Sequence record: PQ478073.1
DNA length: 64,000 nt
Origin: a phage
Direction: 5' to 3' (one strand)
The translations under genes and the position numbers were made by a program. Positions 133 to 58,056 of the stretch are shown here, piece by piece. Every line of letters begins with the position of its first letter. The first letter of the stretch is position 1. The notes under the pieces are model-generated. The model worked only from the letters and a program-made list of their open reading frames with translations, had not been told where the DNA came from and did not search any database.

Positions 133-206
133 AAGTATTTGAGATAACAAATAATATGGAGTACAATGTGCTCCTAATTTAATTATCAGCTAAAAAGGAA
201 AACATT

Positions 207-467
207 ATGAAATCTATTCTCGTTGCAGTTAACCTGGTTGCTTCCCCATCTTTCAACTTCAAACAAGTTGTTGCTGATAATCTGAAGAAGATCTGTCCAA
301 ACGCTGAATTAACTTTCTGTGTGTTTGATTCAGAAAAAGTAACTAAAGTTGATCTAAACTATCTTTTGAACGAAGTAAAAAGCGTTTCTGGTGAAAGTAA
401 CTTAAAAGTTCTTCATGATATTGCAGAAGATTATGATGACACTCTAGTAATTTCGGAGAAATTCTAA
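207..467 (+). CDS. hypothetical protein (86 aa)
   Basis: ORF track; AAGGA RBS upstream of ATG. Confidence 0.5.
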   Translation: MKSILVAVNLVASPSFNFKQVVADNLKKICPNAELTFCVFDSEKVTKVDLNYLLNEVKSVSGESNLKVLHDIAEDYDDTLVISEKF

Positions 468-472
468 ATCAA

Positions 473-892
473 ATGATTACATTCATTCAGTACTTAATCA
501 TTAAATTTTTTGGCTATCATACGATTGAAGGCAAAGCTACACTCGCACATAAAATCTTTGTAGCATTATGTACGGGTGATTATGACGTATTGAATAAGTA
601 CTGTAAATCTAAAGCATGTATTGATATAATGGCACTTCGTATCTATGAGTGCCGTTCCAATAGATACAATTTTTACCAATACAGATTTGATGAAAAAGAA
701 TTTGATAGCATCAAAATGCTTAAGAATTTATGTAACAATAAAAAGAATATGCATATATCAGAATTTGTTGCTTTGTATTTTTATTTAAAAAGTTCATTGT
801 ATATGAACACAATGCAAAGATTCGATACTAGAATTAATGTATTCACCGATAAAGAATTTTATATATACGATAAATTCTTAGATAAGGTTTAA
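473..892 (+). CDS. hypothetical protein (139 aa)
   Basis: ORF track; tightly packed after previous gene. Confidence 0.45.
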   Translation: MITFIQYLIIKFFGYHTIEGKATLAHKIFVALCTGDYDVLNKYCKSKACIDIMALRIYECRSNRYNFYQYRFDEKEFDSIKMLKNLCNNKKNMHISEFVALYFYLKSSLYMNTMQRFDTRINVFTDKEFYIYDKFLDKV

Positions 893-893
893 T

Positions 894-1391
894 ATGACAA
901 CTGTTTATATTGATAAACGATTAAATTTATTGATTACCGATTCTAGAGTTACGTCAACTATACCACGAAACTTATTTGGTTTTTTCCCACTAAGACCAAA
1001 ATATCAATATGGAGTTGTTAATCAAAAAACTTTATATGTACATGACCGTTTATTCAGTGCTAGTGGGGTAGTAAGTGAAATTGATAAAGTACTGGATTGG
1101 TTAATTAATAAAGTACCAGTTATACCTGACAGAAAGTTAAGTTGCCATTGTGTGCTTCTTTCTAAAGATTATGTTATTCATATGATTTTAACTAAAGGAA
1201 AGTTTATTAAAAAACTTGAATATCTACATGAAGACTACACTTTCTTTATGGGAAGTGGTGGAGAATACATGCTAGATGCTGCTATTCATGAAGAACATAC
1301 AACTTTATATGATAAAGTGTTTAGTACTTTCATGGATGTGCACAACCATGATTGCTTCACAGATGATAATATTAATGTATATCGATTTTGA
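894..1391 (+). CDS. hypothetical protein (165 aa)
   Basis: ORF track; start 2 nt after upstream stop. Confidence 0.5.
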   Translation: MTTVYIDKRLNLLITDSRVTSTIPRNLFGFFPLRPKYQYGVVNQKTLYVHDRLFSASGVVSEIDKVLDWLINKVPVIPDRKLSCHCVLLSKDYVIHMILTKGKFIKKLEYLHEDYTFFMGSGGEYMLDAAIHEEHTTLYDKVFSTFMDVHNHDCFTDDNINVYRF

Positions 1392-1412
1392 TTTCGTCAT
1401 TAGGAGATGTAA

Positions 1413-2378
1413 GTGAAAAAGCTTGATTTAAATACAATTGCCGAAGAAGTTCTGGATGAATGTTTTGCTAATGAAGAAGTCAACACACTAGAAGCCTTAG
1501 ATTTCGTTGAAGATAAAGATGATAATGAAGGTAAAGTACAAAGCAGTTTCAAATATAATATTACACTTAAGCGACCACCAAATGTTTCCAATGAAGATCT
1601 AATTCGTGATATTCAAGCTGGTATCAATGTAAAGAAAAACACTGAACTGTTAGTTCGTTACAATTATGGACTGATTATTGATGTAGCAAGTAAATGTACA
1701 TGTTATATCCCATTTGAAGATAAGATTTCATATGGTGTTGAGGGGTTCATGAGAGCACTAAAAACCTTTGATCTTAATAAGAATGTTAAGTTCATTACCT
1801 ATGCTTCTTCTAGTATTTACATGACAGTCTATAACGAAAGTTCTGACGCTAACTATATGGTACACTTCCCACGTTATATGAGTGTTCATAAGATCAAAGT
1901 AAAAAGATTCTGTCAGGAATATATGCGTAAACATGGTGTTCGCCCAACTCCTGAAATAATCTCAGAGGGTACTGGGATTGAGATTCAGCATGTTAATAAT
2001 TGTTTGTTATTTCAAAGCGAATACACTTCGCTGGATGCACCATTAGACGGTGTTACAGATGGTACATTAGGTGACATTATTCATTCACCTGCTTCTGATT
2101 TTAACCTCAATGTTGATAGTATCCGTGCACCTTTACGTTATGCTATCAATGAACTGACTAACGAATTGAGTACTAAAGAACGTGAGATTATCCAGCGTGT
2201 TCATGGTCTAGGTGAATATGAACCTGAAACGCTTCGTGAGATTGCTGATAATGGTTTTGTTGATGATAATGGAAAATATGTTAAATCCCGTTCATCAATA
2301 CACCGAAAGTACAGTGAAGCTATGCAAAAGCTTAAGAAGTTAGTACTTGCAAAAGGGTACGAATACGAAGATTTCTAA
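1413..2378 (+). CDS. sigma-70 family RNA polymerase sigma factor (phage-encoded)
   Basis: GTG start with AGGAG RBS; region-2-like FITYASSSIYMTV and region-4-like LSTKEREIIQRVHGLGEYEPETLREIAD HTH; recalled from sigma-70 alignment. Confidence 0.7.
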   Translation: MKKLDLNTIAEEVLDECFANEEVNTLEALDFVEDKDDNEGKVQSSFKYNITLKRPPNVSNEDLIRDIQAGINVKKNTELLVRYNYGLIIDVASKCTCYIPFEDKISYGVEGFMRALKTFDLNKNVKFITYASSSIYMTVYNESSDANYMVHFPRYMSVHKIKVKRFCQEYMRKHGVRPTPEIISEGTGIEIQHVNNCLLFQSEYTSLDAPLDGVTDGTLGDIIHSPASDFNLNVDSIRAPLRYAINELTNELSTKEREIIQRVHGLGEYEPETLREIADNGFVDDNGKYVKSRSSIHRKYSEAMQKLKKLVLAKGYEYEDF

Positions 2379-2385
2379 AGAACAA

Positions 2386-2411
2386 GGGTTGGCTTATGCC
2401 AACCTTTTTTT
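2386..2411 (+). terminator. rho-independent terminator
   Basis: GGGTTGGC-TTAT-GCCAACC stem-loop followed by T7. Confidence 0.7.
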
Positions 2412-2449
2412 ATGGGATGAAGTAAAAGTTTGTGATATAATTATCTTGT

Positions 2450-3465: not shown

Positions 3466-4254
3466 ATGAGCACTATCGATGAACTGATTCAACGGAATTC
3501 AAAATATTACCAACCATCAGAAATTGTGGATAACATTACTAAATCTGAGTTTGGACCGAACACACGCAAACTCATTCATGTAATGTCACGTGATGGCTTT
3601 AAATGTGATTGTTGTGGTGAATCAAATGTAGTATTCACTTTACATAAGCACAGTACTAAAGAACGTTATAAATTCAGACCTTATGTACTTAAAGGGAAAC
3701 GCCTTGTACGCATGACGTTAGACCATAATGTACTGGACTGTCTTCAGGGCGGTAATGATAAAGAGAACATGACTGCACTGTGTGAAGATTGTAACGCATT
3801 ACGCCAGCATAAGTTTGCTGAATACAGTGAGTTTAAACACTGGTATCATAACGCGGATCGTTCAATCGAGCCTGACGTTAACTACTGCTTCATTGAGTAC
3901 ATTAAGAATGCCAAAGATACATACATTCTTAAATCAATGTCACCTATTACCGTGTTTCCTGAGAACCTATTCACTACATTAAAGAATAGTTTTATTGTAG
4001 GTGATATTGATGCATTCAAGTATTTTGACAAAGGTGCAAAACATTTTGAAATTCAATGTCTTAGTACTGCACTATGTGAACTCATTAAAATTTACATAAA
4101 AGAGTATTTGGGTATTGACAATGTACGTGTACCAGAGTATACTTTTTCTATTGAATTCGATTGTGAATCAATCAAAGAGTTTGGAATTCTTTTCAATAAA
4201 CAAATAGAACTTGCAATTCAAAACGAAATCAAGTACTATACTACTAACATTTAA
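3466..4254 (+). CDS. HNH endonuclease (possible free-standing homing endonuclease)
   Basis: CxxC...DHNVLDCLQGGNDKENMTALCEDCN HNH motif with zinc-ligand cysteines. Confidence 0.7.
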   Translation: MSTIDELIQRNSKYYQPSEIVDNITKSEFGPNTRKLIHVMSRDGFKCDCCGESNVVFTLHKHSTKERYKFRPYVLKGKRLVRMTLDHNVLDCLQGGNDKENMTALCEDCNALRQHKFAEYSEFKHWYHNADRSIEPDVNYCFIEYIKNAKDTYILKSMSPITVFPENLFTTLKNSFIVGDIDAFKYFDKGAKHFEIQCLSTALCELIKIYIKEYLGIDNVRVPEYTFSIEFDCESIKEFGILFNKQIELAIQNEIKYYTTNI

Positions 4255-10308: not shown

Positions 10309-10500
10309 ATGTTGATTTATCAAAGTGATAATATTCGTGTTATGCAGCATCCCTACTTACAAATCTTTGATGTGCAGCAGTATATGGAAGGTGATGACCC
10401 AAGAACCTATGGTCGTAAGTATGATTACTTCACTGTAAAGCAGTGTAAAAATATTAACGAAGTACGACAATTAGTTCAAGAACTTCAAAACAAAGGTTGA
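10309..10500 (+). CDS. hypothetical protein (63 aa)
   Basis: ATG 10309 just after upstream stop; stop lies in terminator stem. Confidence 0.45.
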   Translation: MLIYQSDNIRVMQHPYLQIFDVQQYMEGDDPRTYGRKYDYFTVKQCKNINEVRQLVQELQNKG

Positions 10501-10526
10501 CTTCGGTCAGCCTTTTTTGTTATAAT
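10493..10526 (+). terminator. terminator hairpin GGTTGACTTCGGTCAGCC + T-run with embedded -35 and downstream TATAAT
   Basis: UUCG tetraloop stem plus T6; TTGACT 10497-10502, TATAAT 10521-10526. Confidence 0.7.
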
Positions 10527-13230: not shown

Positions 13231-13345
13231 TTTAACTTTGGGACAACCATTCTTATTATGATATAATGTTTTATGTCATTCGATATAAATGACAACGGAA
13301 CTATAAATATTATAGTAAAATTTATCTCTTATAGGAGTTATAAAA

Positions 13346-13912: not shown

Positions 13913-13920
13913 CAAAATAA

Positions 13921-13946
13921 GGTTGACTTCGGTCAGCCTTTTCTTT
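13921..13946 (+). terminator. terminator GGTTGACTTCGGTCAGCC + T-run
   Basis: Hairpin family copy. Confidence 0.7.
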
Positions 13947-13975
13947 ATACTATAAATATAGTCATAGAGAAAAAA

Positions 13976-16621: not shown

Positions 16622-16646
16622 GGGTTGACTTCGGTCAGCCTTTTTT
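16622..16646 (+). terminator. terminator GGGTTGACTTCGGTCAGCC + T6
   Basis: Hairpin family copy. Confidence 0.7.
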
Positions 16647-16682
16647 GTTATGATGTTGATATTAACTACAGAGGATAAAGTA

Positions 16683-17324
16683 ATGACTAAGCAAGAAATA
16701 TTCAAAACTTTAATTGACATTTTGCGTCCATCAAAAACTCGTTGTGCGATGGAGTTTGATATTCCTTATGCTGAACGCGTAATCTTTCCACAAGTTAAAG
16801 CTGCTGGACTTACTTTGCTTGGAATGGGGATGTACTCTGTAGTAGTTGAACATAAAAACTATCCTGGGCGTGCATTTAAAGTAACCACTTCACGCTGGGA
16901 TGGTTTTCGTGCTTATGCAAAGTACTGCATTGAAAACGCAGGAACCAAGTTTCTTCCAGTGATCTACAGTGCCAACGAACAAGGAAACTTTGGATGGTAT
17001 GAGATGGACAAGTACTATCCTATAATTAAACAAAAAAATAATTATGATGACTTTGTTAGTACTAAAATTGGAGATTTGTATTCGTATGCACATGCTGGTC
17101 AGTACGCAACTTCAGTGAATGATATGCGTGGAAATTCTGAAGAGATTGCTATTGCAACGGTCGCTGCTAACATCATGAAAGAGTTTCACGGGCGTTTTGT
17201 ACCAGACATTCATTCAAGTAATGTGATGATGGATAAAGATGGGAATGTATTCATTACTGATCCTCTTTCGTGTGATGTGCGTAGAGAAATACCAATTACT
17301 GAAGAAGATCCAGTTTTTTATTGA
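16683..17324 (+). CDS. protein-kinase-like protein (213 aa)
   Basis: GAGGA RBS; catalytic-loop-like DIHSSNVMMDKDGNVFITD. Confidence 0.45.
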   Translation: MTKQEIFKTLIDILRPSKTRCAMEFDIPYAERVIFPQVKAAGLTLLGMGMYSVVVEHKNYPGRAFKVTTSRWDGFRAYAKYCIENAGTKFLPVIYSANEQGNFGWYEMDKYYPIIKQKNNYDDFVSTKIGDLYSYAHAGQYATSVNDMRGNSEEIAIATVAANIMKEFHGRFVPDIHSSNVMMDKDGNVFITDPLSCDVRREIPITEEDPVFY

Positions 17325-27840: not shown

Positions 27841-28503
27841 ATGATGAAAACAAAATTAGGTTTGTTTTATAAAAATTATTTCGTTAAACAGCGTAAATTT
27901 ATAAAAAAATATTTCTTTGGTGAGAAGTCTAGTCCTATAATTTTTAAAAGACCAAGTTATAATACTTACTTAGCTGGTGCTAAACAGTCTAAGAAATTTA
28001 TTACTCTTTTAAATAAAAACAAAATTAAAGCTTCTTATGTTGAAACGAGAAGAAACTCATCAATAACTCCTGGTGATTTTATTGAGTACGGATGTTTCAA
28101 TATTAAGTATAATGATAATACATACTTTATGGATATTGATTGTAATACATCCAATCTTTTTAACATTGTAGTAAATCCATTAAAACAATATAATGTTTAT
28201 GGTGATTCTATTATCAAATTAATCAAAAACAAAGATGGCTTTGATTTTGAAATAAATGTTTTAGATGATAATTTTGACGAAGTACCCGTAAACCCTGAAA
28301 TCTGTGATATTTTAAACAGTTTAAAAGGTAGTACCTACAATATATCATCTGATTTAATGTTTCAGTACTCATTAATCCATAAAGATATTGAAAAGTATAT
28401 TGAATGTTCCAAAATTTTGAATTATCTTTACGATGAATTTAAAAAGAGTTCTAAAATAACCGCATACACTTTGTACAATATTCCTAAAATGGTGAATCTT
28501 TGA
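27841..28503 (+). CDS. AT-rich hypothetical protein (220 aa)
   Basis: AAGGAG RBS; 3' end overlaps convergent RCC1-like gene. Confidence 0.55.
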   Translation: MMKTKLGLFYKNYFVKQRKFIKKYFFGEKSSPIIFKRPSYNTYLAGAKQSKKFITLLNKNKIKASYVETRRNSSITPGDFIEYGCFNIKYNDNTYFMDIDCNTSNLFNIVVNPLKQYNVYGDSIIKLIKNKDGFDFEINVLDDNFDEVPVNPEICDILNSLKGSTYNISSDLMFQYSLIHKDIEKYIECSKILNYLYDEFKKSSKITAYTLYNIPKMVNL

Positions 28504-48789: not shown

Positions 48790-49152
48790 ATGGCGACTCA
48801 AATCAATAAAATCATGCTTAACCTGGTAAACTTCCGCGAAGAGATGAAAGGTCTTCCGGCTGAAACTGTAAAAATTCACATTGCAGCTTATCGGGAACTT
48901 ATTGCAATGTTGCCGCTTAAGCGTGAACAATACGCCGCTACTTTGATGCTTGATTCAATGATCCATATAATGATCTCAAATGATTTGACGATGGTTTATC
49001 AGTATATGGGCGAAAATTTCGCGGTGTGTAGTAAGCCAGTACCAGGGATGGCAACTACTGAGGAATTGCACGGTTTAAATTTAAAACAAGATGCATGGGA
49101 TAATATGCCTCGTTTCCTGGTATGGGCTGACAGTGGCAAAATTTACAAATAA
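48790..49152 (+). CDS. hypothetical protein (120 aa)
   Basis: True start 48790 (MATQINK); track start 48733 is the ATG inside TATAATG. Confidence 0.55.
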   Translation: MATQINKIMLNLVNFREEMKGLPAETVKIHIAAYRELIAMLPLKREQYAATLMLDSMIHIMISNDLTMVYQYMGENFAVCSKPVPGMATTEELHGLNLKQDAWDNMPRFLVWADSGKIYK

Positions 49153-49166
49153 GTTTAATAAAGTAC

Positions 49167-49225
49167 TTGCAAACTATGTTTAATGGCGTATAATGTTTTA
49201 CATCAGGTGGGGAATAGTTCCCCAC
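49167..49225 (+). promoter_or_regulatory. early-type promoter TTGCAA-N16-TATAAT plus 5'UTR hairpin
   Basis: TTGCAA 49167-49172; TATAAT 49189-49194; hairpin 49207-49225. Confidence 0.65.
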
Positions 49226-49246
49226 TATATAAGAGGATTAAAAAAA

Positions 49247-49486
49247 ATGGCTAAATCAAAAATGTTCTTAGGTCACAAAAACAAAACTCATTGGAATGTA
49301 AGCCTGTGGATTAATAACGATGAGGGATTGTATCGGTTGGCCCTGGATTTTATTAACGATAGCACTAATCGCAATGATGCGGCCCGTCATATGATGTTAT
49401 TTTTAGAACAGACTGGACAAGATAAAACACCGGACGGATTCAAATATAGCACTACTGCGATCCGTGCGGCGATGGTTGGAATGTAA
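49247..49486 (+). CDS. hypothetical protein (79 aa)
   Basis: GAGG RBS; N-terminus MAKSK. Confidence 0.55.
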   Translation: MAKSKMFLGHKNKTHWNVSLWINNDEGLYRLALDFINDSTNRNDAARHMMLFLEQTGQDKTPDGFKYSTTAIRAAMVGM

Positions 49487-49571
49487 TAGAATTTATTTAA
49501 AGTACTATCATTTTTTGCGATAGTACTTTATAATAGTGTTTTATTCATACACCAACGATAAGGGCAACAGC

Positions 49572-49835
49572 ATGAATATTAAGTATTTTGCGACGCGTGA
49601 ACAAGCTCGGATCGCCGCTCGCCAGGACGGGGCAACGTTTAAAGATATGGGAGCGGGATCGGCAAGTGGTGAACGTTGGGCCATTGTAAAGCGTAGTACA
49701 GCCAGATCATTACAGTACTGGTTAGCGGCCTTAAAAAGTCCCGATAGTGTATCGCGTCGAGTGGTAGAAATAAAGCTCGACCGAAAGGGCAACCGCGTGA
49801 CCGTGTACCGTACTAAAAAGATTGCAGTACTATAA
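49572..49835 (+). CDS. hypothetical protein, family X (FATREQARI), paralogue of 60447..60842
   Basis: MNIKYFATREQARIAARQDG...RKGNRVTVYRTKK. Confidence 0.55.
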   Translation: MNIKYFATREQARIAARQDGATFKDMGAGSASGERWAIVKRSTARSLQYWLAALKSPDSVSRRVVEIKLDRKGNRVTVYRTKKIAVL

Positions 49836-49843
49836 AAAAGTAC

Positions 49844-49902
49844 TTGCAAACTATGTTTAATGGCGTATAATGTTTTACATCGAGAGCGGGAACACTTCCC
49901 GC
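49844..49902 (+). promoter_or_regulatory. early-type promoter plus 5'UTR hairpin
   Basis: TTGCAA 49844-49849; TATAAT 49866-49871; hairpin 49883-49902. Confidence 0.65.
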
Positions 49903-49923
49903 CTATAACCTGGAGTAATAAAA

Positions 49924-50154
49924 ATGACTAATATGTATATGACTGAAGTTAAAACCGTAAAAGATACTACCACGAATAAAACTACTTACTTACAGCGGAT
50001 CTGTGGTGTATGGCAACGTATCAGCAAATCAAAGTACTTTAAATTAACATCATATGCAAATCGTTCGGATTCATTCAGTACTGAAATAAAAGGTAATAAA
50101 GTACACCAATACGGCACTTATTATTATTACAGCCTGGACGCGATTGCAGTATAA
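49924..50154 (+). CDS. hypothetical protein (76 aa)
   Basis: GGAG RBS. Confidence 0.5.
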   Translation: MTNMYMTEVKTVKDTTTNKTTYLQRICGVWQRISKSKYFKLTSYANRSDSFSTEIKGNKVHQYGTYYYYSLDAIAV

Positions 50155-50236
50155 GCAGTTTACAAATCTTTACAATTGCCGGTATTGACTTATTTTGTCA
50201 GTACTGGCATAATGTATTCATTGGCAGATAAGCCGT

Positions 50237-50311
50237 AGCCCATAGGGTGCGGGAGTGTATCTATAGAAAAAGTAGTTTATTACAGTTACAATTGTGCACC
50301 CGGTGGGTTAG
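50237..50311. promoter_or_regulatory. inverted pair of ACCCA-N-GGGTG palindrome motifs
   Basis: CCCATAGGGTGC 50240-50251 and GCACCCGGTGGG 50295-50306. Confidence 0.4.
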
Positions 50312-50403
50312 CTGTTGTCATGGGGTATATTATGCCAGTACTTGATAATGCTGTCAATACTTTTTTTACTATTCAGTACTGAAAACTATTTTTAAAAAGT
50401 ACT

Positions 50404-50430
50404 TGCAAACTATGTTTAAAGGCGTATAAT
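50404..50430 (+). promoter_or_regulatory. early-type promoter TTGCAA-N15-TATAAT (upstream of tandem pair)
   Basis: TTGCAA 50404-50409; TATAAT 50425-50430. Confidence 0.6.
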
Positions 50431-50437
50431 GTTTTAC

Positions 50438-50512
50438 ATCAGGACGGGGAACGAAATAAGTAACTTCCCGTTAAGTAGCCCAGGAGTAAGGCACACGAAA
50501 AACTCCCCTGAT
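50438..50512 (+). ncRNA. candidate structured leader RNA, copy 1
   Basis: 75-nt element between two promoters; closing stem AUCAGG/CCUGAU and GGGGAA/UUCCCC hairpin; near-identical copy at 59588-59663. Confidence 0.4.
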
Positions 50513-50520
50513 AAAATAGT

Positions 50521-50548
50521 TTGACAAATGTTTTTAAAAGCGTATAAT
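50521..50548 (+). promoter_or_regulatory. promoter TTGACA-N16-TATAAT
   Basis: TTGACA 50521-50526; TATAAT 50543-50548. Confidence 0.6.
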
Positions 50549-50580
50549 ACTTACATCAACTACTGAATGAGGGTTACAAA

Positions 50581-51192
50581 ATGAAAACTATCACTACTAC
50601 TACTTTCGTTATGGATTTTTCTGAATTGAACGCAGAACAAAAAACGTCAGCTATCGAACTGGTTCGGGAACGTGAAAAAAACTCAAACGACAATTATTTT
50701 TCTGAAAGTGAAATTGAATACTATAAAGAAACAGTACTACCGGAATATGGCATTAATGACGCTGAAATACAATTCAGTGGCTTTTGGTCCCAGGGTGACG
50801 GTGCATCAATCAGTACTGACCACGTTGACGCAGTGAAGTTTTTACGCAAGGTAAGAGCATTAACTAAGTATCGCTCAATCCGTCACTTGCTGAATGAAGA
50901 TGATTTGGCGATGAGTGTAAAGCGTTCGCACTCCCACTACTCGCATGAGAATACTGTAAGCGGGTACATTGAATCGGCTTACACTGATTTAACCGCAAAA
51001 CAAGAAACGTTAGTTAATGAGCTTGAGGAACTACTCACTGAAACTATTCGTGAATTATCCCGCAAGTTGTACCGTGATTTAGAGAATGCATATGAGGATC
51101 AATTCACTACTGAAAACATTACGGCACTGATTGAGGGTAACGAGTATCAATTCAATGTTATTGATGGCGTAGTGGAATCAATCGAATATTAA
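50581..51192 (+). CDS. hypothetical acidic protein (203 aa)
   Basis: GAGGG RBS. Confidence 0.6.
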   Translation: MKTITTTTFVMDFSELNAEQKTSAIELVREREKNSNDNYFSESEIEYYKETVLPEYGINDAEIQFSGFWSQGDGASISTDHVDAVKFLRKVRALTKYRSIRHLLNEDDLAMSVKRSHSHYSHENTVSGYIESAYTDLTAKQETLVNELEELLTETIRELSRKLYRDLENAYEDQFTTENITALIEGNEYQFNVIDGVVESIEY

Positions 51193-51284
51193 TTTAAAAA
51201 GTACTTGCAAACTAAGTTTAAAAGCGTATAATACTTTATATCGAGAGCGGGAATAGTTCCCGCTACTAATGAGGAATACTACAA

Positions 51285-51449
51285 ATGAATACTTTTACCT
51301 TCGCTCAATTGAACGCCCTGGATGTATTGTCTGATGCTTTGCGGGATGCAACTGAAAGCGGTTTATTTGACAATGTTGACATTCACCCTGATGTAATTAA
51401 TAATTTTTGTGATGCTATCGCAGAAGTACTGGAAGATCTAAAAAAATAA
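51285..51449 (+). CDS. hypothetical protein (54 aa)
   Basis: Promoter + hairpin + GAGGAA RBS cassette; below track cutoff. Confidence 0.5.
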   Translation: MNTFTFAQLNALDVLSDALRDATESGLFDNVDIHPDVINNFCDAIAEVLEDLKK

Positions 51450-51537
51450 TAGAAAGTACTTGCAATTAGTTTTTAGTACTGTATAATAGTTTACATAGAG
51501 GGGAGAAATGGTTCTCCCTGGTAATGAGGAAAATAAA

Positions 51538-51759
51538 ATGGCTAATATCACTACTCTTTCCCAACTGGAAGCACTGGTTAAATCTATGCGGGAACATGCC
51601 GACAAAATCGGCGTACAAGATCCAGCCGTTTGCTTCTGCGACGAATTGAATGATGATACCCTGGTAATAGCAGAAGTCCAGGACGTTTCTAACTATTCCT
51701 CGCGTTACACTGGCGGCGTAGCAAATAAAGGTGACTTCTGTTTATACCTTACAAAATAA
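51538..51759 (+). CDS. hypothetical protein (73 aa)
   Basis: ATG 51538 (MANITTL); cassette upstream. Confidence 0.55.
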   Translation: MANITTLSQLEALVKSMREHADKIGVQDPAVCFCDELNDDTLVIAEVQDVSNYSSRYTGGVANKGDFCLYLTK

Positions 51760-51761
51760 CA

Positions 51762-51795
51762 ACGCGGGGAGATAATAACTCCCCGTTACTTTTTC
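51762..51795 (+). terminator. terminator hairpin CGGGGAG-ataataa-CTCCCCG + T-run
   Basis: Stem-loop followed by TTACTTTTT. Confidence 0.55.
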
Positions 51796-52001
51796 AGTAC
51801 TGAATCATTTAATAGACGGATCTCGGCACCCGGTGGGTTAGTGACTGTTTCGTCTTGATGTAGTAATTATGCCAGTACTGGATGCACTTGTCAACAACTA
51901 TTTTTCAAATACTTTTTATTAAAATACTTGCTAATAGTTTTTAAACGCGTATAATGTTTTGCATAGGGGAGCGGTTCCCCTGGTAACTAAGGAATAAGAA
52001 A

Positions 52002-52238
52002 ATGCTTGAACAAATCAAATCAACGTCTGCTAATGTAACGGGAACGGTATCACACTTTATTGGTGATGAATCGCGGGGCGTTCCCTATTGTGCTGTACAT
52101 GTAAACACTGAGGGTAACTACTGGTTTACGGTTTACGGATCATATTCATTTGGACGGCCAGGGCATCAAAAAATTCTGGATAAAGTACAGCCAACGGGTA
52201 AAAATATCACGGCTGAAATGTTTTATAAAAAATCATAA
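52002..52238 (+). CDS. hypothetical protein (78 aa)
   Basis: AAGGAA RBS; cassette upstream. Confidence 0.55.
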   Translation: MLEQIKSTSANVTGTVSHFIGDESRGVPYCAVHVNTEGNYWFTVYGSYSFGRPGHQKILDKVQPTGKNITAEMFYKKS

Positions 52239-52322
52239 AGTACTTGATAATAGTTTTTAGTACTGTATAATATTTTACATAGCACGGGGGAGCGGTTCCC
52301 CCTGGTAACTAAGGATAATCAA

Positions 52323-52622
52323 ATGAAAATTGCAATCATCGCCCTGGCTTTATCTGTTTCCTCTTTCGCTGTTAATGCGTCGTTAGATGTGAGTAGTGAA
52401 AAATTCATTCAGTGCACTGTTGCGATGACCAATGAAAGTACGGGCGAGATTGTTTTAAAGGATTTAGAGATCCAGCCACAAGCATTTAAAAACGGGCCGT
52501 TCCATGAAGAAGACGAAAACGGTAGCACAACCATTTATTATGATGCAAGTACTAAGCGTGGATCGGTCACGGTTATGGATACAGAGAAAGTAACGCACAC
52601 AGGAGTAATTAACTGTTTATAA
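52323..52622 (+). CDS. secreted protein (99 aa)
   Basis: Signal peptide MKIAIIALALSVSSFAVNAS. Confidence 0.55.
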   Translation: MKIAIIALALSVSSFAVNASLDVSSEKFIQCTVAMTNESTGEIVLKDLEIQPQAFKNGPFHEEDENGSTTIYYDASTKRGSVTVMDTEKVTHTGVINCL

Positions 52623-52639
52623 TCTAGTACTGAATCACT

Positions 52640-52668
52640 AGCCCACCTTAAACAGTGGGCTTTTTTGT
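52640..52668 (+). terminator. terminator AGCCCAC-cttaaaca-GTGGGCT + T6 (duplicated at 53366)
   Basis: Hairpin plus T-run. Confidence 0.65.
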
Positions 52669-52861
52669 TTTGTAGTACTGCATACTTTAAAAATAGTTTT
52701 AAAAAAGTAGTTGACATTACCACAAAAAGGCGTAGAATGTATTACATCAAGACGGGGAGCACTAAGTAGACCGCCAGTAAGTCGAACGAAAAACTGGACA
52801 CGTCGATAAAACTTTGATACACTAATAAACGTAAACTAAACTTTAATTGAGGATTTATAAA

Positions 52862-53344
52862 ATGGCTAATGTAAAATCATTCCTGAAAGCACTGATTTCA
52901 AACGATACTGTTATTGCTGCTGAATTGCTGGCTGAACTGGATAACGATACAATGAAAGCGGTACGCAACAATTTTAACATTGCGTACAGTGAAGCTAAAG
53001 AACTGCAAGCCAAAAAGGTAGCAGAACTGGAAGAACAGAAAAAAGCCCGTGAAGCAGAACTACAAGCAACAATTGAAAGTATTCAGGCGGCAGTGTCTGG
53101 ATTGGATCTGGAAGTGGTTGTAGAAATGGCACATAAAGCCCTGGCGGTTAAGTACGGTGAAGATAAGCCGGAATCTAAACCTAAAAAATGGATTCAAGAA
53201 CGTGTTACTGTAGTACTTGATAACGGTGAAGAACATTTGATTCCTGTACGCGGTAACTGCATTGCGGTAGTACTGGACGCTATCAAAGAAAGCGGTATGA
53301 CTCGCGAGGAATGGATCGAAGCTCATCGCAAAGTTGAAGCATAA
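52862..53344 (+). CDS. hypothetical protein (160 aa)
   Basis: ATG 52862 (MANVKSF); track start is TTG. Confidence 0.55.
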   Translation: MANVKSFLKALISNDTVIAAELLAELDNDTMKAVRNNFNIAYSEAKELQAKKVAELEEQKKAREAELQATIESIQAAVSGLDLEVVVEMAHKALAVKYGEDKPESKPKKWIQERVTVVLDNGEEHLIPVRGNCIAVVLDAIKESGMTREEWIEAHRKVEA

Positions 53345-53365
53345 CAATTAAAGTACTGAATCAAT

Positions 53366-53393
53366 AGCCCACCTTAAACAGTGGGCTTTTTTG
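53366..53393 (+). terminator. terminator, second copy
   Basis: Same hairpin as 52640. Confidence 0.65.
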
Positions 53394-53628
53394 TGTCTAT
53401 AGTATTCCAGTCCACTAGCACCGCCTAGAATCGATTCTAACGCATTAAACTGATTATCTGATACATCGCCCTAGCTGGTGGCGTTAAGGTCGTTAGAAAG
53501 CGATTGAGAGTGTTTAAAGTATTTTGCAAAAAGTAATAAAAAGTACTTGCATGATTAAGAGATTAGCGTATAATGTTTTACATCGAAAGGGGAAACGGTT
53601 CTCCTTCCAAATCAAAGGAATCAAAACA

Positions 53629-53856
53629 ATGGCTATTATCATTACTCGCGTATCTGGTACTACTGGCAATTCTTCTACTGTTGCAGTCATTACTAACAAG
53701 GCAGGTGCGGAATTGCAAAATGCAATGAATACCTGGGCCGTTAATGAGTTCGGTCAGTGGGCAAGTGTAGCATACATTGAAACCTATCAAGTGCCGACCA
53801 TTAGTTTAACGGATCTTGGTGTGGAACGTATCCTTTGCTTGGATGAATTAAATTAA
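53629..53856 (+). CDS. hypothetical protein (75 aa)
   Basis: ATG 53629 (MAIIITRV); AAAGGAA RBS. Confidence 0.55.
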   Translation: MAIIITRVSGTTGNSSTVAVITNKAGAELQNAMNTWAVNEFGQWASVAYIETYQVPTISLTDLGVERILCLDELN

Positions 53857-53941
53857 AAAAGTACTTGCAAAGTAAATCGAATAAAGTATAATACATTACA
53901 TCAAGGGGAGAAATGATTCTCCCCACTACAAGGAAACTAAT

Positions 53942-54085
53942 ATGAAAACTTGTCAATGTGGTAAAAAATCTATTACTGGTTTAAAGCGGGGCGTTGCTCT
54001 TTGCCAGTACCATTATAATTTACAAGTATGGGGTAAAGAATGGGCCGACCAGGTGGAAGCAATTAAGAAAGCAAAAAGTAAGTAA
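53942..54085 (+). CDS. small Cys-containing protein (47 aa)
   Basis: Cassette upstream; CQCGKK...CQYH; below track cutoff. Confidence 0.45.
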   Translation: MKTCQCGKKSITGLKRGVALCQYHYNLQVWGKEWADQVEAIKKAKSK

Positions 54086-54174
54086 AAATATTATCACAGT
54101 ACTATTGACATAGTTTGATAGTACTGGCATAATAGATTTTATCAAGACAACATATTAATTTAAGGAATACTAAA

Positions 54175-54498
54175 ATGGCTAAAACTATCATTAACACCGT
54201 TTCCCTGGCTGCAATCCGTGCAATCAATGTTGACGGTAAACGTTGGACTGATTCATATGGCAATACTTATCATTCTTGTCATGTAAGCGTCGAACTGGAT
54301 AACGGTTTGAATGTTCTGGCGGTTGAATCATTTACTTATGGCTATGAAGATGCATATCAACAAACGGCGTTAGATCTATTAAAGGAATCAGTAGACGGGC
54401 TTAATACTGATGAAACCTCCCTTACTCGTTTGTGCAATGATCTTAATATCCCGTTGCATTGTACTGTACAGAATGTTAAACGCAAAAAAGATCTTTAA
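54175..54498 (+). CDS. hypothetical protein, family Y, paralogue of 60024..60347
   Basis: Shared RWTDSxGNTYHSC...FTYGY...KRKKD. Confidence 0.6.
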   Translation: MAKTIINTVSLAAIRAINVDGKRWTDSYGNTYHSCHVSVELDNGLNVLAVESFTYGYEDAYQQTALDLLKESVDGLNTDETSLTRLCNDLNIPLHCTVQNVKRKKDL

Positions 54499-54578
54499 TT
54501 AGCTTTACTTTATGCAGATACTTTGATATAGTGTCTGCATAGGGGAAAGAAATTAAATTAACTTAAGAGGATCGTATA

Positions 54579-54848
54579 ATGAAAAATATCAGTACTTTAA
54601 TCGATGCAGGTACACATGTTCGGCGGTCTATGGTTGCAACCAGTACTACAAAACAAGTAGCAAGCGGTTATCTTGTATTTGTGCACGATGGTAAACTCCT
54701 GGAACGTTCAATCAATTTTGATGTTAAAAACAATTGCCGTTTTATTATCTTTAAGCGTGAACAATATAAAATTGATTTGCCAGCGAAGCCCATTAGCGGG
54801 GCGTACAACGTGCAATCATTGTTTGAGCGTCAACCATACACCTATTGA
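54579..54848 (+). CDS. hypothetical protein (89 aa)
   Basis: AGAGGA RBS. Confidence 0.55.
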   Translation: MKNISTLIDAGTHVRRSMVATSTTKQVASGYLVFVHDGKLLERSINFDVKNNCRFIIFKREQYKIDLPAKPISGAYNVQSLFERQPYTY

Positions 54849-54899
54849 TCAAATCATCGTTAGTGGTCGATTTAGGCCGCTTATATTGGGGATTATACC

Positions 54900-55070
54900 A
54901 TGAACGTTAATCAAGTACTAAATGAAGTTGAAAGCATCATTAAACCAATGAAACGTATTGATGCTGTTCCTACACCGGAAGAATGCCGCCTTTATGAGCG
55001 TTACAGTGTGGAACAAGCCCAGGCGATGGCCCGTATCCGTCCGGTTGCCAGTACTGATAAGGCGGCGTAA
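54900..55070 (+). CDS. hypothetical protein (56 aa)
   Basis: Fills gap; weak RBS; below track cutoff. Confidence 0.35.
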   Translation: MNVNQVLNEVESIIKPMKRIDAVPTPEECRLYERYSVEQAQAMARIRPVASTDKAA

Positions 55071-55071
55071 T

Positions 55072-55278
55072 ATGCTTACTGTACAGGATAAGATCGACAT
55101 CTTAAAGGTTAATATGTATGTGATTGATGCAGATCCTGAAAAAGTATTTGCATACGATGATTCTAATCGTAGTCCTTTTTATTGTAGTCATGAAGTTGGT
55201 AAAGTGCCGCTAGATTATGTTATTGAAAGAGTAGTTGATTCAGCTTATAAACATTACTTAGAAAGTACTTGCAATTAG
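55072..55278 (+). CDS. hypothetical protein (68 aa)
   Basis: ATG directly after upstream TAA. Confidence 0.45.
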   Translation: MLTVQDKIDILKVNMYVIDADPEKVFAYDDSNRSPFYCSHEVGKVPLDYVIERVVDSAYKHYLESTCN

Positions 55279-55343
55279 TTTTTAAACGCGTATAATGATT
55301 TGCATAGGGGGAAACATCTTCCCCCGATACTAGGAGAAACAAA

Positions 55344-55496
55344 ATGAAACAATATAACGCTCGGTTTGATGTTACTATCGGTAACGGGAAAGGTCAGTAC
55401 TCTTTCAGTACTCGTAAGAGTTATACAGAAAACTTCCTGCGTAATTGTGCACTTACCGCCGCACAAATTAAACATTACTTTCAGGCTAAAAAATGA
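55344..55496 (+). CDS. hypothetical protein (50 aa)
   Basis: Cassette + AGGAGAAA RBS. Confidence 0.5.
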   Translation: MKQYNARFDVTIGNGKGQYSFSTRKSYTENFLRNCALTAAQIKHYFQAKK

Positions 55497-55582
55497 AAAC
55501 ATTAGCTTACTATAGTTCGGCCCTGGTCGGTGCAGTACTGGCGGCATTGTTAGTAACCTATCTATTCTTTATGGTGATTTAA
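55493..55582 (+). CDS. small TM peptide (29 aa)
   Basis: ATGA overlap with upstream stop; hydrophobic. Confidence 0.3.
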   Translation: MKTLAYYSSALVGAVLAALLVTYLFFMVI

Positions 55583-55720
55583 ATGAATCCAAATAATATT
55601 ATCTATCATAACGCTAAAACGAAAGCAGATAAGGTAAACGCAAAAAAAGCGAAAGTAAAGCAGTACATCAAGCAAGGCATGACACGCAAAGCGGCATTGC
55701 TTAAAGCTAAAAATAAATGA
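55583..55720 (+). CDS. small lysine-rich protein (45 aa)
   Basis: ATG right after upstream stop; ends at terminator. Confidence 0.35.
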   Translation: MNPNNIIYHNAKTKADKVNAKKAKVKQYIKQGMTRKAALLKAKNK

Positions 55721-55727
55721 AAAAAAG

Positions 55728-55751
55728 TGGTTGACTTCGGTCAGCCATTTT
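55728..55751 (+). terminator. terminator TGGTTGACTTCGGTCAGCCA + T-run
   Basis: Hairpin family copy. Confidence 0.65.
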
Positions 55752-55784
55752 GCTATTATATATTCATTGAGAGATAGCTCACTA

Positions 55785-55819
55785 GCCCACAGGGTGCAGG
55801 AATGTATCTATTGTATAAT
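55785..55819 (+). promoter_or_regulatory. palindromic operator-like motif at about -35 of a TATAAT promoter
   Basis: GCCCACAGGGTGC 55785-55797; TATAAT 55814-55819; no -35 hexamer. Confidence 0.45.
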
Positions 55820-55942
55820 GATTGAGTACATAAAACTATTTTAAAGTATTTGATAAAAAGTACTTGCATACTATCTCAATAGGCGTATAATGTTTTACAT
55901 CGCAAGGGGAAACGGTTTCCCCTGGTAATAAGGAAACGAATC

Positions 55943-56284
55943 ATGACTATTGCAATTGCTCAATCTAACTTTGAAAACGAAATCATCTCCCAGGCTTTAC
56001 GTTTAAATGATGGTCGGGCCGAAATCAATTACGGTTTCAATAGTGGTGGATGTGAAAAATATCAGTACTTTATAACTGCTGATGGCGGTGTCCTGGGCAT
56101 CAATACCGTTATCGTTAACATTCAAAACATTAACTTTAATGATCCAGATGATAGCCAGTACTACATTGTCGGTGTAGACGTGAACTACGAAGATGATTCC
56201 TTAACTGATGATCACACTGGCGAGAAGTTAGAAAGTGCATACGGTGAAGATGATTATCAGTCCGGTCCAGAAGATTTCGAATAA
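55943..56284 (+). CDS. hypothetical acidic protein (113 aa)
   Basis: Cassette + AAGGAA RBS. Confidence 0.6.
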   Translation: MTIAIAQSNFENEIISQALRLNDGRAEINYGFNSGGCEKYQYFITADGGVLGINTVIVNIQNINFNDPDDSQYYIVGVDVNYEDDSLTDDHTGEKLESAYGEDDYQSGPEDFE

Positions 56285-56376
56285 TATAAAAAATAGTTTG
56301 ACAATAGATTATAGTACTGTATAATAGTTTACATCAAGGGGAGAATAGTTCTCCCCACTAACAGAGAAAAAACAAA

Positions 56377-56589
56377 ATGGCTAATATCCGCACTGTACTG
56401 AAAAATGCAAAACAAGTTTTATTTTCTGATCATGATACTTTCAACAAGGATATTACTGGCGTTCGGAATATCAAAGATGTAAAAAGTGTTATGGGTATCT
56501 ATTGCAATATGAAACGTGTTGGCACGTTCGGCGATAAAGTACTATACCAGGCAGGGGATTACAATTTTACACTGACTATCATTAACTAA
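56377..56589 (+). CDS. hypothetical protein (70 aa)
   Basis: Cassette; N-terminus MANIRTV. Confidence 0.55.
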   Translation: MANIRTVLKNAKQVLFSDHDTFNKDITGVRNIKDVKSVMGIYCNMKRVGTFGDKVLYQAGDYNFTLTIIN

Positions 56590-56680
56590 AAATATTATCA
56601 CAGTACTATTGACAACGTTTGATAGTACTGGCATAATAACTTTTATCAAGACAACGCATATTAATTTAAGGAATACTAAA

Positions 56681-56860
56681 ATGGCTATTATCGCAAAAAC
56701 TGAAATCATCGGCCTGGATTCTATCATCATGACGTTTGAAGATCAAAAAGGGATGTATGTAGTTTCCTATGGTGATTATGTTCGGGAGTATGAAACGGTA
56801 GACGAAGCCTTTGAAAGTTACATTCGCCAGGTTAATAAAGCATACGACGATTACCGCTAA
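56681..56860 (+). CDS. hypothetical protein (59 aa)
   Basis: ATG 56681; upstream leader 56590-56683 duplicates 54086-54177. Confidence 0.5.
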   Translation: MAIIAKTEIIGLDSIIMTFEDQKGMYVVSYGDYVREYETVDEAFESYIRQVNKAYDDYR

Positions 56861-56959
56861 AATATATTACCAGTACTATTAAATCTATTGACAATGTTTG
56901 ATAGTACTGTATAATAAGTTTTATAAACAGTAGTTAACTTAACCTAAGAGAGAAAAATC

Positions 56960-57103
56960 ATGACAGCATTAGATTCATTCATCGACGCAGTACTGGCAAA
57001 AACTGGCGAGGATCTGACCGCAGAACAATACGCGATGATCGAACAATGTCAGCAAGACGGTAAATCGGTGAAAGATACTGTTAAGATTATCCGCAAGATG
57101 TAA
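56960..57103 (+). CDS. hypothetical protein (47 aa)
   Basis: GAGAGAAA RBS; followed by terminator. Confidence 0.45.
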   Translation: MTALDSFIDAVLAKTGEDLTAEQYAMIEQCQQDGKSVKDTVKIIRKM

Positions 57104-57109
57104 CAAATA

Positions 57110-57138
57110 AGCCCACTGGTTAACGCTGGTGGGCTTTA
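57110..57138 (+). terminator. terminator hairpin AGCCCAC...GTGGGCTTT
   Basis: GC-rich stem plus T-tract. Confidence 0.55.
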
Positions 57139-57208
57139 ATCATTTACCCTATACAATGCCAGTACTAAACCGTTTAACTCGTTAGAATGCGTTACAGGAC
57201 GTTTAACA

Positions 57209-57406
57209 ATGATTAGCATGAAATCAGTACAAAAACAAATAGAAACATTATCAAAAATTAAACGTAAACAGTACTCCTTAGAATATACAATCAATGGTAA
57301 CTATCATCTAATGAAAGAAAATAATTTTATAGTCATTGATGAATCATTGCAAATCATTAGTATAGTACTGAAAGCATTAATCAATGACAGAAAAAAGTTA
57401 AAATAA
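57209..57406 (+). CDS. hypothetical protein (65 aa)
   Basis: ORF track; no clear RBS. Confidence 0.35.
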   Translation: MISMKSVQKQIETLSKIKRKQYSLEYTINGNYHLMKENNFIVIDESLQIISIVLKALINDRKKLK

Positions 57407-57465
57407 TCTATTGACAAATTATTCCAGTACTGGCATAATACTTACATCAAGACGAGAACGTCACT

Positions 57466-57499
57466 AACCCATAGGGTGCACAAATGTAACTATATAATA
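57466..57499 (+). promoter_or_regulatory. palindromic operator-like motif plus TATAAT
   Basis: AACCCATAGGGTGC 57466-57479; TATAAT 57494-57499. Confidence 0.45.
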
Positions 57500-57735
57500 T
57501 CGATCAATAAATGATCAAAAAAGTACTGGATCAATTTAGCATAAGGCGTATAATTCTGATCAAATCTTGATCAAAGGCAATAAACGTAGTTGAAATTATA
57601 TAGAAAGTACAAAGGCGTTACCATTCGTGGTAATGCTGGGGAATATGTAGTATCATACGGTTTGAATAAAATCAGTACTAGTAGTATTATTGTAGCATTA
57701 CAGTACTATAGTAATTTTATAATGAGGTTAAAATA

Positions 57736-57993
57736 ATGGCTGTAGGATTCACGAAAGATGGGGCCGAGCAAGACGAGATTAACGCAGTGATTCAGGCCGC
57801 TGTAAACCACGCTAGAACGCAAATTAACGCACAAATAGAATCATTGATACATTGCCTCGACTGCGGCGATAAAATCCCTGAGAATCGCCGCCAGGCCGTT
57901 AAGGGGTGTAAGTACTGCATAACTTGCCAAGAGGATCATGATAGTATTTTTAAACGTCTACCGCGTAATTGTTGGCATAGATCTATGAGATAA
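57736..57993 (+). CDS. DksA/TraR-family C4 zinc-finger protein
   Basis: CLDCGDKIPENRRQAVKGCKYCITCQE resembles TraR CxxC-N17-CxxC finger. Confidence 0.65.
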   Translation: MAVGFTKDGAEQDEINAVIQAAVNHARTQINAQIESLIHCLDCGDKIPENRRQAVKGCKYCITCQEDHDSIFKRLPRNCWHRSMR

Positions 57994-58056
57994 AAAGTAT
58001 TGACAGTGCTGTTAGTTAGTGTATAATATTTTATATCTTAACTGAGGATTGAAATC

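Follow-up and report, generated by a model that had tools for sequence, protein, structure and literature searches.

Domain anatomy and candidate target promoters of a phage-encoded sigma-70-family factor from an Asteriusvirus-like jumbo coliphage

In the cascade of phage SPO1, the host sigma factor is followed by the phage sigma gp28 for middle transcription and then by gp33/34 for late transcription (summarized in PMC13401047). Jumbo phages of 'group 2', which have no RNA polymerase of their own, carry sigma factors instead, RpoD-like and minimal types being characteristic (Iyer et al., PMC7824862), and two reviews state that such sigmas 'likely' steer the host core enzyme to phage promoters. 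Behind this hallmark stands the question of how phages of 350 kb program the host polymerase. For one of them, CBB, sigma domains and a 'divergent RpoD-like' TGAAACG...TATA promoter class were described, and the sigma gene was placed in the predicted early region (PMC5259590). Here we analyzed 64,000 nucleotides of phage DNA (sequence record PQ478073.1; the window), in which a 321-residue protein had been read from the sequence as a full-length sigma-70-family sigma factor. The protein belongs to a small and distinct phage clade of this family, and a defined class of candidate middle promoters was found in its relatives and in the window. That the early sigma redirects the host core to TGRGACAA-N14-TGnTATAAT promoters, as part of an early-middle-late cascade, is our leading reading, at about even odds.

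The gene itself is already known. It is named a sigma factor in most deposited relatives, which amount to dozens of genomes, with the annotation RNA polymerase sigma factor, RpoD-like, in relatives of the 121Q type, and the papers on phAPEC6, Sharanji, fEgEco12, and CBB refer to it. Its target promoters had been called unknown in the original prediction, in agreement with the literature that we searched: its function is inferred only, in every paper, and neither a transcriptome nor a transcription start site map nor biochemical work was found for Asteriusvirus or RaK2. The first 6 kb of the window were 99.0%, 98.3%, and 97.6% identical to the Asteriusvirus jumbo coliphages slurp01, PBECO4, and 121Q, respectively; these relatives are myoviruses of about 350 kb from the Rak2-like group. 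The same gene, gp167 in 121Q (YP_009101754.1), is present in PBECO4, phAPEC6, slurp01, Sharanji, SP27, and JP4 with 99-100% protein identity and identical coordinates, start, and neighbors, and the sigma locus differs from that of 121Q in nothing of substance except its upstream promoter (TTGAGA rather than TTGACA). The GTG start was corroborated by the N-terminus MKKLDLN..., which is kept in all aligned orthologs, and by the annotation of 121Q gp167 at identical coordinates with the same start and stop. Sigma genes were present wherever checked, in 33 Escherichia phage records compared with 34 for primase, where a 94-kb record may be the extra one. The fEgEco12 paper describes the sigma as 'completely absent' from Ecwhy_1, which is wrong: Ecwhy_1 (MH791411.1, 1665-2630) has it at 99.1% identity by tblastn, annotated as 'similar to RNA polymerase sigma factor'. 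In the CMSTMSU phage the gene lies in 4 pieces, probably through sequencing errors.

Membership of the sigma-70 family was confirmed far above chance. The hidden Markov model search that the original prediction had proposed for regions 2 and 4 returned sigma-70 domain matches, with Sigma70_r2 (7e-5, 23.0 bits against a Pfam cut-off of 24.0) and Sigma70_r4 (3.1e-5, 23.8 against 24.1) each at most 1 bit under the threshold and Sigma70_r3 above it (2.1e-9, 37.8 against 25.3). The r4 match is confined to residues 251-279 (model positions 4-28) because an insertion interrupts region 4.2. NCBIfam RpoD_Cterm aligned over residues 79-283 (6.3e-25), and the superfamily model TIGR02937 was the only NCBIfam model to pass its curated cut-off (44.7 against 42.9 bits). 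The protein is a member of PHROG 351, 'RNA polymerase sigma factor' (1.9e-60, 206.5 bits, residues 1-317). In the PDB search the best match was RpoD (7.1e-17), and the best solved relatives were RpoD, SigA, SigB, and RpoS chains; a Foldseek search with the AlphaFold2 (AF2) model likewise returned sigmaS, sigmaA, and sigma70 chains from initiation complexes (Foldseek probability 1.00). The model contains three confident helical domains, at residues ~55-145, ~160-200, and ~240-315, with a disordered N-terminus and sigma3-sigma4 linker. Both motifs named at the outset were located: FITYASSSIYMTV lies at residues 127-139 and aligns to sigma70 region 2.3/2.4 (F427 to F127 and Y430 to Y130), and LSTKEREIIQRVHGLGEYEPETLREIAD at residues 252-279 spans region 4.1 and the first helix of region 4.2. 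The designation 'full-length' holds in part. Both in sequence and in structure the protein comes closest to E. coli sigma70 and sigmaS, it is collinear with them over regions 2, 3, and 4, and its size and acidic N-terminus are sigmaS-like; in contrast, region 1.1 and the non-conserved region are missing and region 1.2 is degenerate.

HMMER, run exhaustively on 1.84 billion representative proteins, gave 19,296 sigma-family matches. About 18 clusters scored 118-541 bits, followed by a gap, the next matches reaching at most 88 bits. Every clade member examined lacked the tryptophan dyad of sigma70 and carried a G-F/Y-x-D-x-x-G-K insertion in region 4.2, which was 2-3 residues shorter in two of them; the insertion was absent from the cellular sigmas examined just under the score gap. 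The orthologs range from Escherichia to Xanthomonas phages, at 31-99% identity. Because of the score gap, the loss of the dyad, and the insertion, the protein is placed in a small, distinct phage clade inside the sigma-70 family and outside the curated group 1-4 subfamilies. Together with the N-terminal MKKLDLN..EVLDECF motif, these are the marks of a Rak2-like jumbo-phage sigma clade, and the window protein has all of them. RaK2 ORF244, CBB_513/GAP32, Munch gp487, and XbC2_538 belong to the same clade (31-46% identity), sharing the N-terminal motif, the dyad loss, and the insertion, and all lie amid small open reading frames (ORFs).

The curated cut-offs of the cellular groups were missed widely. 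For group 1, TIGR02393 scored 88.2 against 354 and PRK05658 63.9 against 555, region 1.1 is lacking, two serines replace the dyad, and Q437M and T440Y are found. For group 2, TIGR02394 scored 70.4 against 378.7, and RpoS keeps WW, RQ, and RER-RQ, which the window protein does not. For group 3 (FliA/WhiG and SigB/F/G), TIGR02479 scored 55.5 against 189.6 and TIGR02980 56.5 against 234.35; absence of the dyad is a group-3-like trait. Assignment to group 4 (extracytoplasmic function sigmas) conflicts with a sigma3 domain above the Pfam cut-off. Nor is the protein gp55-like, since it has sigma3 and sigma4, and PHROG 351 was its only PHROG match. Sigmas of the same general kind, those of cyanophage S-CBS1 (group 2) and Salisaeta phage SSIP-1, gave weak tblastn matches (24-26% identity). 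These two, as well as gp36 of phiEco32, which we take to be a phage-encoded sigma70-family sigma, fall outside the clade as set by score gap, insertion, and dyad loss.

Residues were mapped computationally after aligning the window protein with E. coli RpoD and RpoS and with ten orthologs of 31-85% identity. The N-terminal motif is followed by a variable acidic linker that reaches about residue 50; a sigma1.1-like role for the motif is only a guess. Sigma2 aligns to RpoD 373-456. N383, D403, F419, K426, F427, T429, Y430, and R584 of sigma70 are conserved, with the conservative changes E420D and R423K. Several of the residues retained in region 2.3/2.4 (F419, K426, F427, T429, and Y430) make up what we take to be the sigma70 capture pocket for the flipped -11 adenine. 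The differences from sigma70 in region 2.3/2.4 are W433S, W434S, R436Y, Q437M, T440Y, and R441N, and those in sigma3 are R451H, H455Y, and E458V. Presumably W433, W434, Q437, T440, H455, and E458 are the residues with which sigma70 reads position -12 and the TG of the extended -10 element. Small residues replace the W433/W434 dyad in 11/11 aligned phage sequences, and several other changes vary inside the clade, Munch, CBB, and XbC2 retaining R436 and Q437. In region 4.2, the recognition helix (aligned to sigma70 583-599) reads RSSIHRK against RERIRQI of sigma70, with R584 retained and E585S, R586S, R588H, and Q589R changed. The helices of sigma4 in the AF2 model span residues 254-264, 274-279, and 293-313. 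The insertion of about 8-11 residues (NGFVDDNGKYVK) lies between the first helix of the helix-turn-helix (HTH) and the recognition helix; sigma70 and sigmaS lack it.

The sigma gene closes a tight group of four genes (207-2378), which has a sigma70-type promoter in front and a strong intrinsic terminator behind it (Table 1). In 121Q, sigma70-type promoters lie upstream of the operon at 87993, 87672, 86310, and 84464, the last three being further upstream consensus sites, and two 20-kb scans around the sigma region found 12 perfect TTGACA-N16-TATAAT sites on the coding strand. These promoters directly upstream and the position of the CBB ortholog in a predicted early region argue for early expression and fit transcription of the operon by the host holoenzyme, as we infer.

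A candidate middle promoter class was found by inspecting the regions upstream of replication genes in the full 121Q genome. It consists of an A-rich tract, TGRGACAA, 14 nt, and TG(A/C)TATAAT at fixed spacing. The pattern G[AG]GACAA-N12-18-TA[TC]AAT had 16 occurrences on the + strand of 121Q and none on the - strand; Markov-simulated genomes gave 0.2. Sites of the class precede the genes for SSB, primase, exonuclease, topoisomerase, and the late sigma (gp591), and also a tRNA cluster and the operons of nudix/glutaredoxin and thymidylate synthase. The TGAAACG box known from CBB is not used in Asteriusvirus, as its 8 window occurrences were scattered and had no promoter context.

We compared the syntenic primase regions of 121Q, RaK2, CBB, JNE01, and Munch. 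In the orthologous promoters TGnTATAAT was constant, whereas the box at the -35 position differed between lineages: TGRGACAA in 121Q, TTGGGACAAA in Munch, TTTGAACAAA in RaK2, and ATGAAACG in CBB, the last matching the box of the CBB paper. The boxes of JNE01 were mixed (GRGACAA as well as TGAACA/GGAACG), so that the prediction that JNE01 retains the 121Q box was borne out only in part. Among extended -10 sites, RGACAA stood at the -35 position in 6/16 for 121Q, 5/12 for JNE01, 3/9 for Munch, 0/8 for RaK2, and 0/12 for CBB; TGAACA was found there twice in JNE01 and three times in RaK2 (0 in the other three), and TG[AG]AA[CT] in 9/12 sites of CBB and in 1 site of each other phage. 121Q, JNE01, and Munch share the recognition-helix pattern R-S/T-S-x-H-R; RaK2 has R-G-T-L-H-Y and CBB has K-A-T-L-S-R. 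The Munch sigma is more distant from that of 121Q (37% identity) than the RaK2 sigma is (46%), yet Munch shares the 121Q-type helix and box; the box thus appears to track the helix, not overall relatedness, and to follow it roughly across lineages. Region 4.2 of the host sigma70 is essentially invariant across these hosts, so that a phage-encoded factor must supply the specificity for the box, and a sigma whose region 4.2 varies by lineage is the obvious choice for it.

The late genes appear to be served by a separate sigma factor of the gp55 type, 121Q gp591 (PHROG 12791, 2.7e-154; PHROG 234, 8.4e-18). The 121Q structural genes for the major capsid, sheath, tube, baseplate, and fiber proteins have ATAAATA 25-45 nt 5' of the start codon, and a T4-like late motif was also reported for CBB and GAP32 (PMC5259590). 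The exact T4 late consensus TATAAATA was considered as the late core and discarded, as it occurs only 2 times in the window; the late core here is ATAAATA. The phage resembles T4 in its gp55-type late sigma, its ATAAATA late promoters, and its middle promoters with a strong -10 and a phage-specific upstream box. At 13240-13309 (+) of the window, the single middle-class promoter is followed by a late ATAAATA (13303-13309) ahead of the gene for a virion structural protein (ortholog of 121Q gp199); the stacked promoters suggest dual temporal control.

In the cascade that we propose, sigma70-type promoters of the host kind would drive early synthesis of the phage sigma, which would bind the host core RNA polymerase, the phage having no polymerase of its own. 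This holoenzyme would then act at middle promoters before the replication, recombination, and nucleotide-metabolism genes, the tRNA cluster, and the late-sigma gene. The lineage-specific box at the -35 position would be read by the remodeled region 4.2, with its altered helix and predicted clade-specific beta-hairpin, and TATAAT by sigma2. The gp55-like late sigma, made from a middle promoter, would finally act on ATAAATA promoters. Core binding, timing, and the pairing of holoenzyme with promoter are thus the deduced parts of the scheme. It would work like SPO1 gp28 followed by gp33/34, except that late transcription would fall to a T4 gp55-like sigma and that the order of events is taken from promoter positions only. 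To what was known of sigma-bearing jumbo phages, the analysis adds the defined promoter class, the lineage-specific -35 box that roughly follows the recognition helix, and a late-sigma gene downstream of the class; if the proposal is correct, it would establish the temporal cascade for a major group of jumbo phages.

Several points weigh against it. The region 2.2 core-binding residues are altered (Q406S, E407Y, and N409V), and for no clade member did the literature search turn up measurements of expression, binding, or transcription. The match of helix and box is not strict, JNE01 combining a 121Q-like helix with its mixture of boxes; the five lineages are not phylogenetically independent, and the boxes were defined after the data had been inspected. 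A recognizable box is present in about 1/3 to 1/2 of the extended -10 sites of 121Q, JNE01, Munch, and RaK2, and in 3/4 of those of CBB. Finally, the promoters carry a canonical sigma70 extended -10 element, yet the residues with which sigma70 reads -12 and TG are all replaced in the phage sigma (W433S, W434S, Q437M, T440Y, H455Y, and E458V), which would fit host sigma70 reading the -10.

This last point leads to a T4-style explanation, in which host sigma70 reads TGnTATAAT and a phage activator or appropriator reads the box, the RpoD-like sigma having other targets or replacing an inactivated sigma70 at the TTGACA/TTGCAA classes. T4 middle promoters follow the same logic, with a good -10 and a phage-specific upstream box. 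The -10 and TG are perfect for sigma70, a T7 gp0.7-like kinase of the window carries the annotation of an inhibitor of host transcription, and in CBB and XbC2 an HTH regulator lies two genes 5' of the sigma gene. In the window, however, Pfam detected no HTH regulator like CBB_511, and indeed no family, in the three genes that apparently share the sigma transcript or in five small genes 3' of the sigma gene. Of the T4 pair MotA and AsiA, AsiA alone served as query (verified as 100% identical to the T4 protein), and neither 121Q nor the window gave a significant match to it (best E 0.065). The box moreover sits exactly at -35 with sigma-like 16-nt spacing, whereas the MotA box of T4 is at -30. 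A T4-style mechanism would also leave a universally conserved sigma capable of reading two blocks without a distinct promoter class, the remaining classes being sigma70-consensus or gp55-type. We therefore consider this explanation unlikely, although it deserves serious weight.

Returning to direct recognition by the phage sigma, a more specific form of the proposal is that the inserted beta-hairpin and altered helix give a distinct reading of an 8-10-bp -35 element (TGRGACAA, TTGAACAAA, or ATGAAACG, depending on the lineage), and that helix and box have co-evolved into pairs that are orthogonal on the enterobacterial core and form the middle step of a three-sigma cascade. We offer this form only tentatively. 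If true, it would provide orthogonal sigma/promoter pairs for E. coli and reveal how an insertion in the sigma4 HTH affects -35 recognition.

The original prediction had proposed other targets, namely the A/T-rich TATAAT-containing elements in front of each gene of the RCC1-like-domain array (28484-41790, -), which holds about 11-12 tandem paralogs of 370-400 residues, each with its own terminator and element. The elements exist: TATTAAATATAGTATAATGAATAAAGGAGG precedes about 9 paralogs and, having no TTGACA -35, is not a standard sigma70 promoter. Their recurrence is not independent evidence, however, because the whole unit, comprising terminator hairpin, element, ribosome-binding site, and the conserved MLPFGRM coding start, was tandemly duplicated. 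The T-tract of the terminator occupies the -35 position, leaving no GRGACAA box for region 4.2, and the element is near-identical to the late-type promoter of the tail-fiber gene gp607 (ATAAATATAGTATAT) and differs from the ATAAATA core at one position. In a late-promoter matrix, the RCC1 cassettes looked late-like but stayed under every training site, with 0.8-7.2 bits (99.0-99.95th percentile) against 9.7-18.5 bits for the training sites, which were exact ATAAATA matches, so that the matrix over-penalizes the single mismatch of the cassettes. With a separate gp55-like late sigma and a better candidate class at hand, it is improbable that the sigma drives the array through TATTAAATATAGTATAAT elements; these may be late promoters or weak -10-only promoters, with no specific tie to the sigma. 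A role in DNA condensation was speculated for the RCC1-like proteins in the phAPEC6 paper, and the 121Q record does not flag them as virion proteins. One unit seems to be split or frameshifted (33317-34237 and 34317-34496).

Least plausible of all is a sigma that does not direct initiation, acting instead as a decoy that sequesters host core or blocks sigma70 in host shut-off, or decaying as an acquired host gene: its core-binding and -10-reading residues have diverged and curated sigma equivalog scores lie far under their cut-offs, but all three DNA- or core-binding domains are predicted confidently by AF2, and full-length conservation across genera with the clade motifs, including the DNA-reading helix and -10-recognition residues, excludes decay.

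Table 1. Coordinates of the sigma-factor gene, its domains, and the associated transcription signals in the window
Feature	Coordinates	Strand	Evidence and remarks
Sigma-factor gene	1413..2378	+	321 aa, GTG start, TAA stop; ortholog of 121Q gp167
Shine-Dalgarno TAGGAG	1401..1406	+	6 nt ahead of GTG; read directly
Acidic N-terminal motif MKKLDLNxIxxEVLDECF, residues 1-20	1413..1472	+	Clade-conserved (alignment); helix 6-18 low-confidence (AF2)
Sigma2 domain, residues 80-140	1650..1832	+	Pfam Sigma70_r2; AF2 predicted local distance difference test (pLDDT) 75-89
Region 2.3/2.4 segment FITYASSSIYMTVYN	1791..1835	+	Alignment to sigma70; clade-wide
Sigma3 domain, residues 162-226	1896..2090	+	Pfam Sigma70_r3
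Sigma4 domain, residues 251-315	2163..2357	+	Pfam r4 (251-279 only), alignment, AF2
Insertion in region 4.2 HTH, residues 280-292, NGFVDDNGKYVKS	2250..2288	+	Predicted beta-hairpin, AF2 pLDDT 84-88
Region 4.2 recognition helix RSSIHRKYS	2289..2315	+	Alignment to sigma70
Three tightly packed genes (86, 139, 165 aa)	207..1391	+	Orthologs of 121Q gp164-166; apparently co-transcribed with sigma gene
Sigma70-type promoter TTGAGA-N17-TACAAT	139..167	+	121Q, same site: TTGACA-N17-TACAAT
Intrinsic terminator, 10-bp stem AAGGGTTGGC/GCCAACCTTT and T-tract	2384..2417	+	6 nt past stop codon; closes sigma operon
Middle-class promoter GGGACAAC-N14-TATAAT, TGA before -10	13240..13267	+	Sole window copy; corresponds to 121Q site 101440
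RCC1 element, AAATATAATATAAA variant	30888..30901	-	
RCC1 element AAATATAGTATAAT	32049..32062	-	
RCC1 element AAATATAGTATAAT	33262..33275	-	
RCC1 element AAATATATTATAAT	34514..34527	-	
RCC1 element AAATATAGTATAAC	35779..35792	-	
RCC1 element AAATATAGTATAAT	36988..37001	-	
RCC1 element AAATATAGTATAAT	39379..39392	-	
RCC1 element AAATATAGTATAAT	40627..40640	-	
RCC1 element AAATATGATATAAT	41808..41821	-	First gene of array

The three upstream and five small downstream neighbors of the sigma gene matched only PHROG families of unknown function, apart from the 165-aa protein that adjoins it on the 5' side (894-1391, +), which gave a weak match to HslV peptidase (PHROG 1040, 9.1e-6, residues 1-130) and none in Pfam. 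About 500 nt without annotation (2418-2935) separate the sigma terminator from a TTGACA-N17-TAGAAT promoter (2936-2964), and a gap also follows the sigma gene in 121Q and RaK2. Scans of the whole window for tRNAs and Rfam families returned nothing at gathering thresholds, and a permissive Rfam scan of the gap gave chance-level small RNA matches only (E ~0.7). An HNH endonuclease gene (3466-4254, +; PHROG 35175, 1.8e-188) lies about 1.1 kb 3' of the sigma gene. The fEgEco12 paper has the HNH endonuclease gp520 adjoining the sigma gp519, and in CBB an endonuclease lies three genes 3' of the sigma. The gene for the T7 gp0.7-type protein kinase homolog lies at 16683-17324 (+) and matches 'inhibitor of host transcription' (PHROG 15752, 4.7e-92); its product is a possible partner in turning the host polymerase from sigma70.

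A family of very strong early-type promoter cassettes was found on the + strand at 47000-64000. They consist of an A-tract, AGTAC, TTGCAA or TTGACA, 16 nt, TATAAT, and gttttACAT, as at 49167-49194, 49844-49871, 51205-51232, 53865-53892, 58690-58717, and 62797-62824. Each is followed by a GC-rich hairpin in the 5'-untranslated region (GGGGAGAA...TTCTCCCC) and by the ribosome-binding site of a small ORF; perfect 12/12 sigma70 consensus sites numbered 9 in 20 kb of this region. Compact terminator-promoter units were present at 10492-10526, 13919-13951, 16625-16654, 55724-55759, 59417-59452, and 62362-62397, and also 5' of the genes starting at 21178, 22458, and 24181. In these units the -35 TTGACT lies inside the loop and stem of the terminator hairpin (AAAGGGTTGACTTCGGTCAGCCCTTT), and the T-tract forms the spacer before TGCTATAAT or TGCTATTAT.

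The palindrome AGTACT occurred 281 times in the window against about 22 expected from base composition, most densely at 44000-64000, and 903 times in 121Q against 118. AGTACT, GTACTG, and CAGTAC were the three most over-represented hexamers (12-13-fold), and CAGTACTG was found 57 times in the window (0.7 expected) and 194 times in 121Q (3.4 expected). AGTACT sites lie in early-promoter spacers (cagtactgTATAAT), abut -35 elements (aAGTACTTGCAA), form part of RCC1 terminator stems, and occur inside genes in all frames. The excess is unusual; one possible explanation would be binding or modification at these sites, another a repeat-spreading element. ORFs of about 60 aa are arranged head to tail in two runs (about 15 in total; 42525-43916 and 44784-46702, +), which correspond to 121Q gp252-265 and fill part of an apparent 4-kb ORF-free region. 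The following 2 kb or so (46700-48700) hold no convincing ORFs and have promoter-like sites on both strands, and the equivalent ~2 kb of 121Q is also without annotation. Degenerate 16/24/48-bp tandem repeats lie within it at 47811-47910, and a 53-bp repeat in 2.6 copies, which carries CAGTACTG, at 48536-48675.

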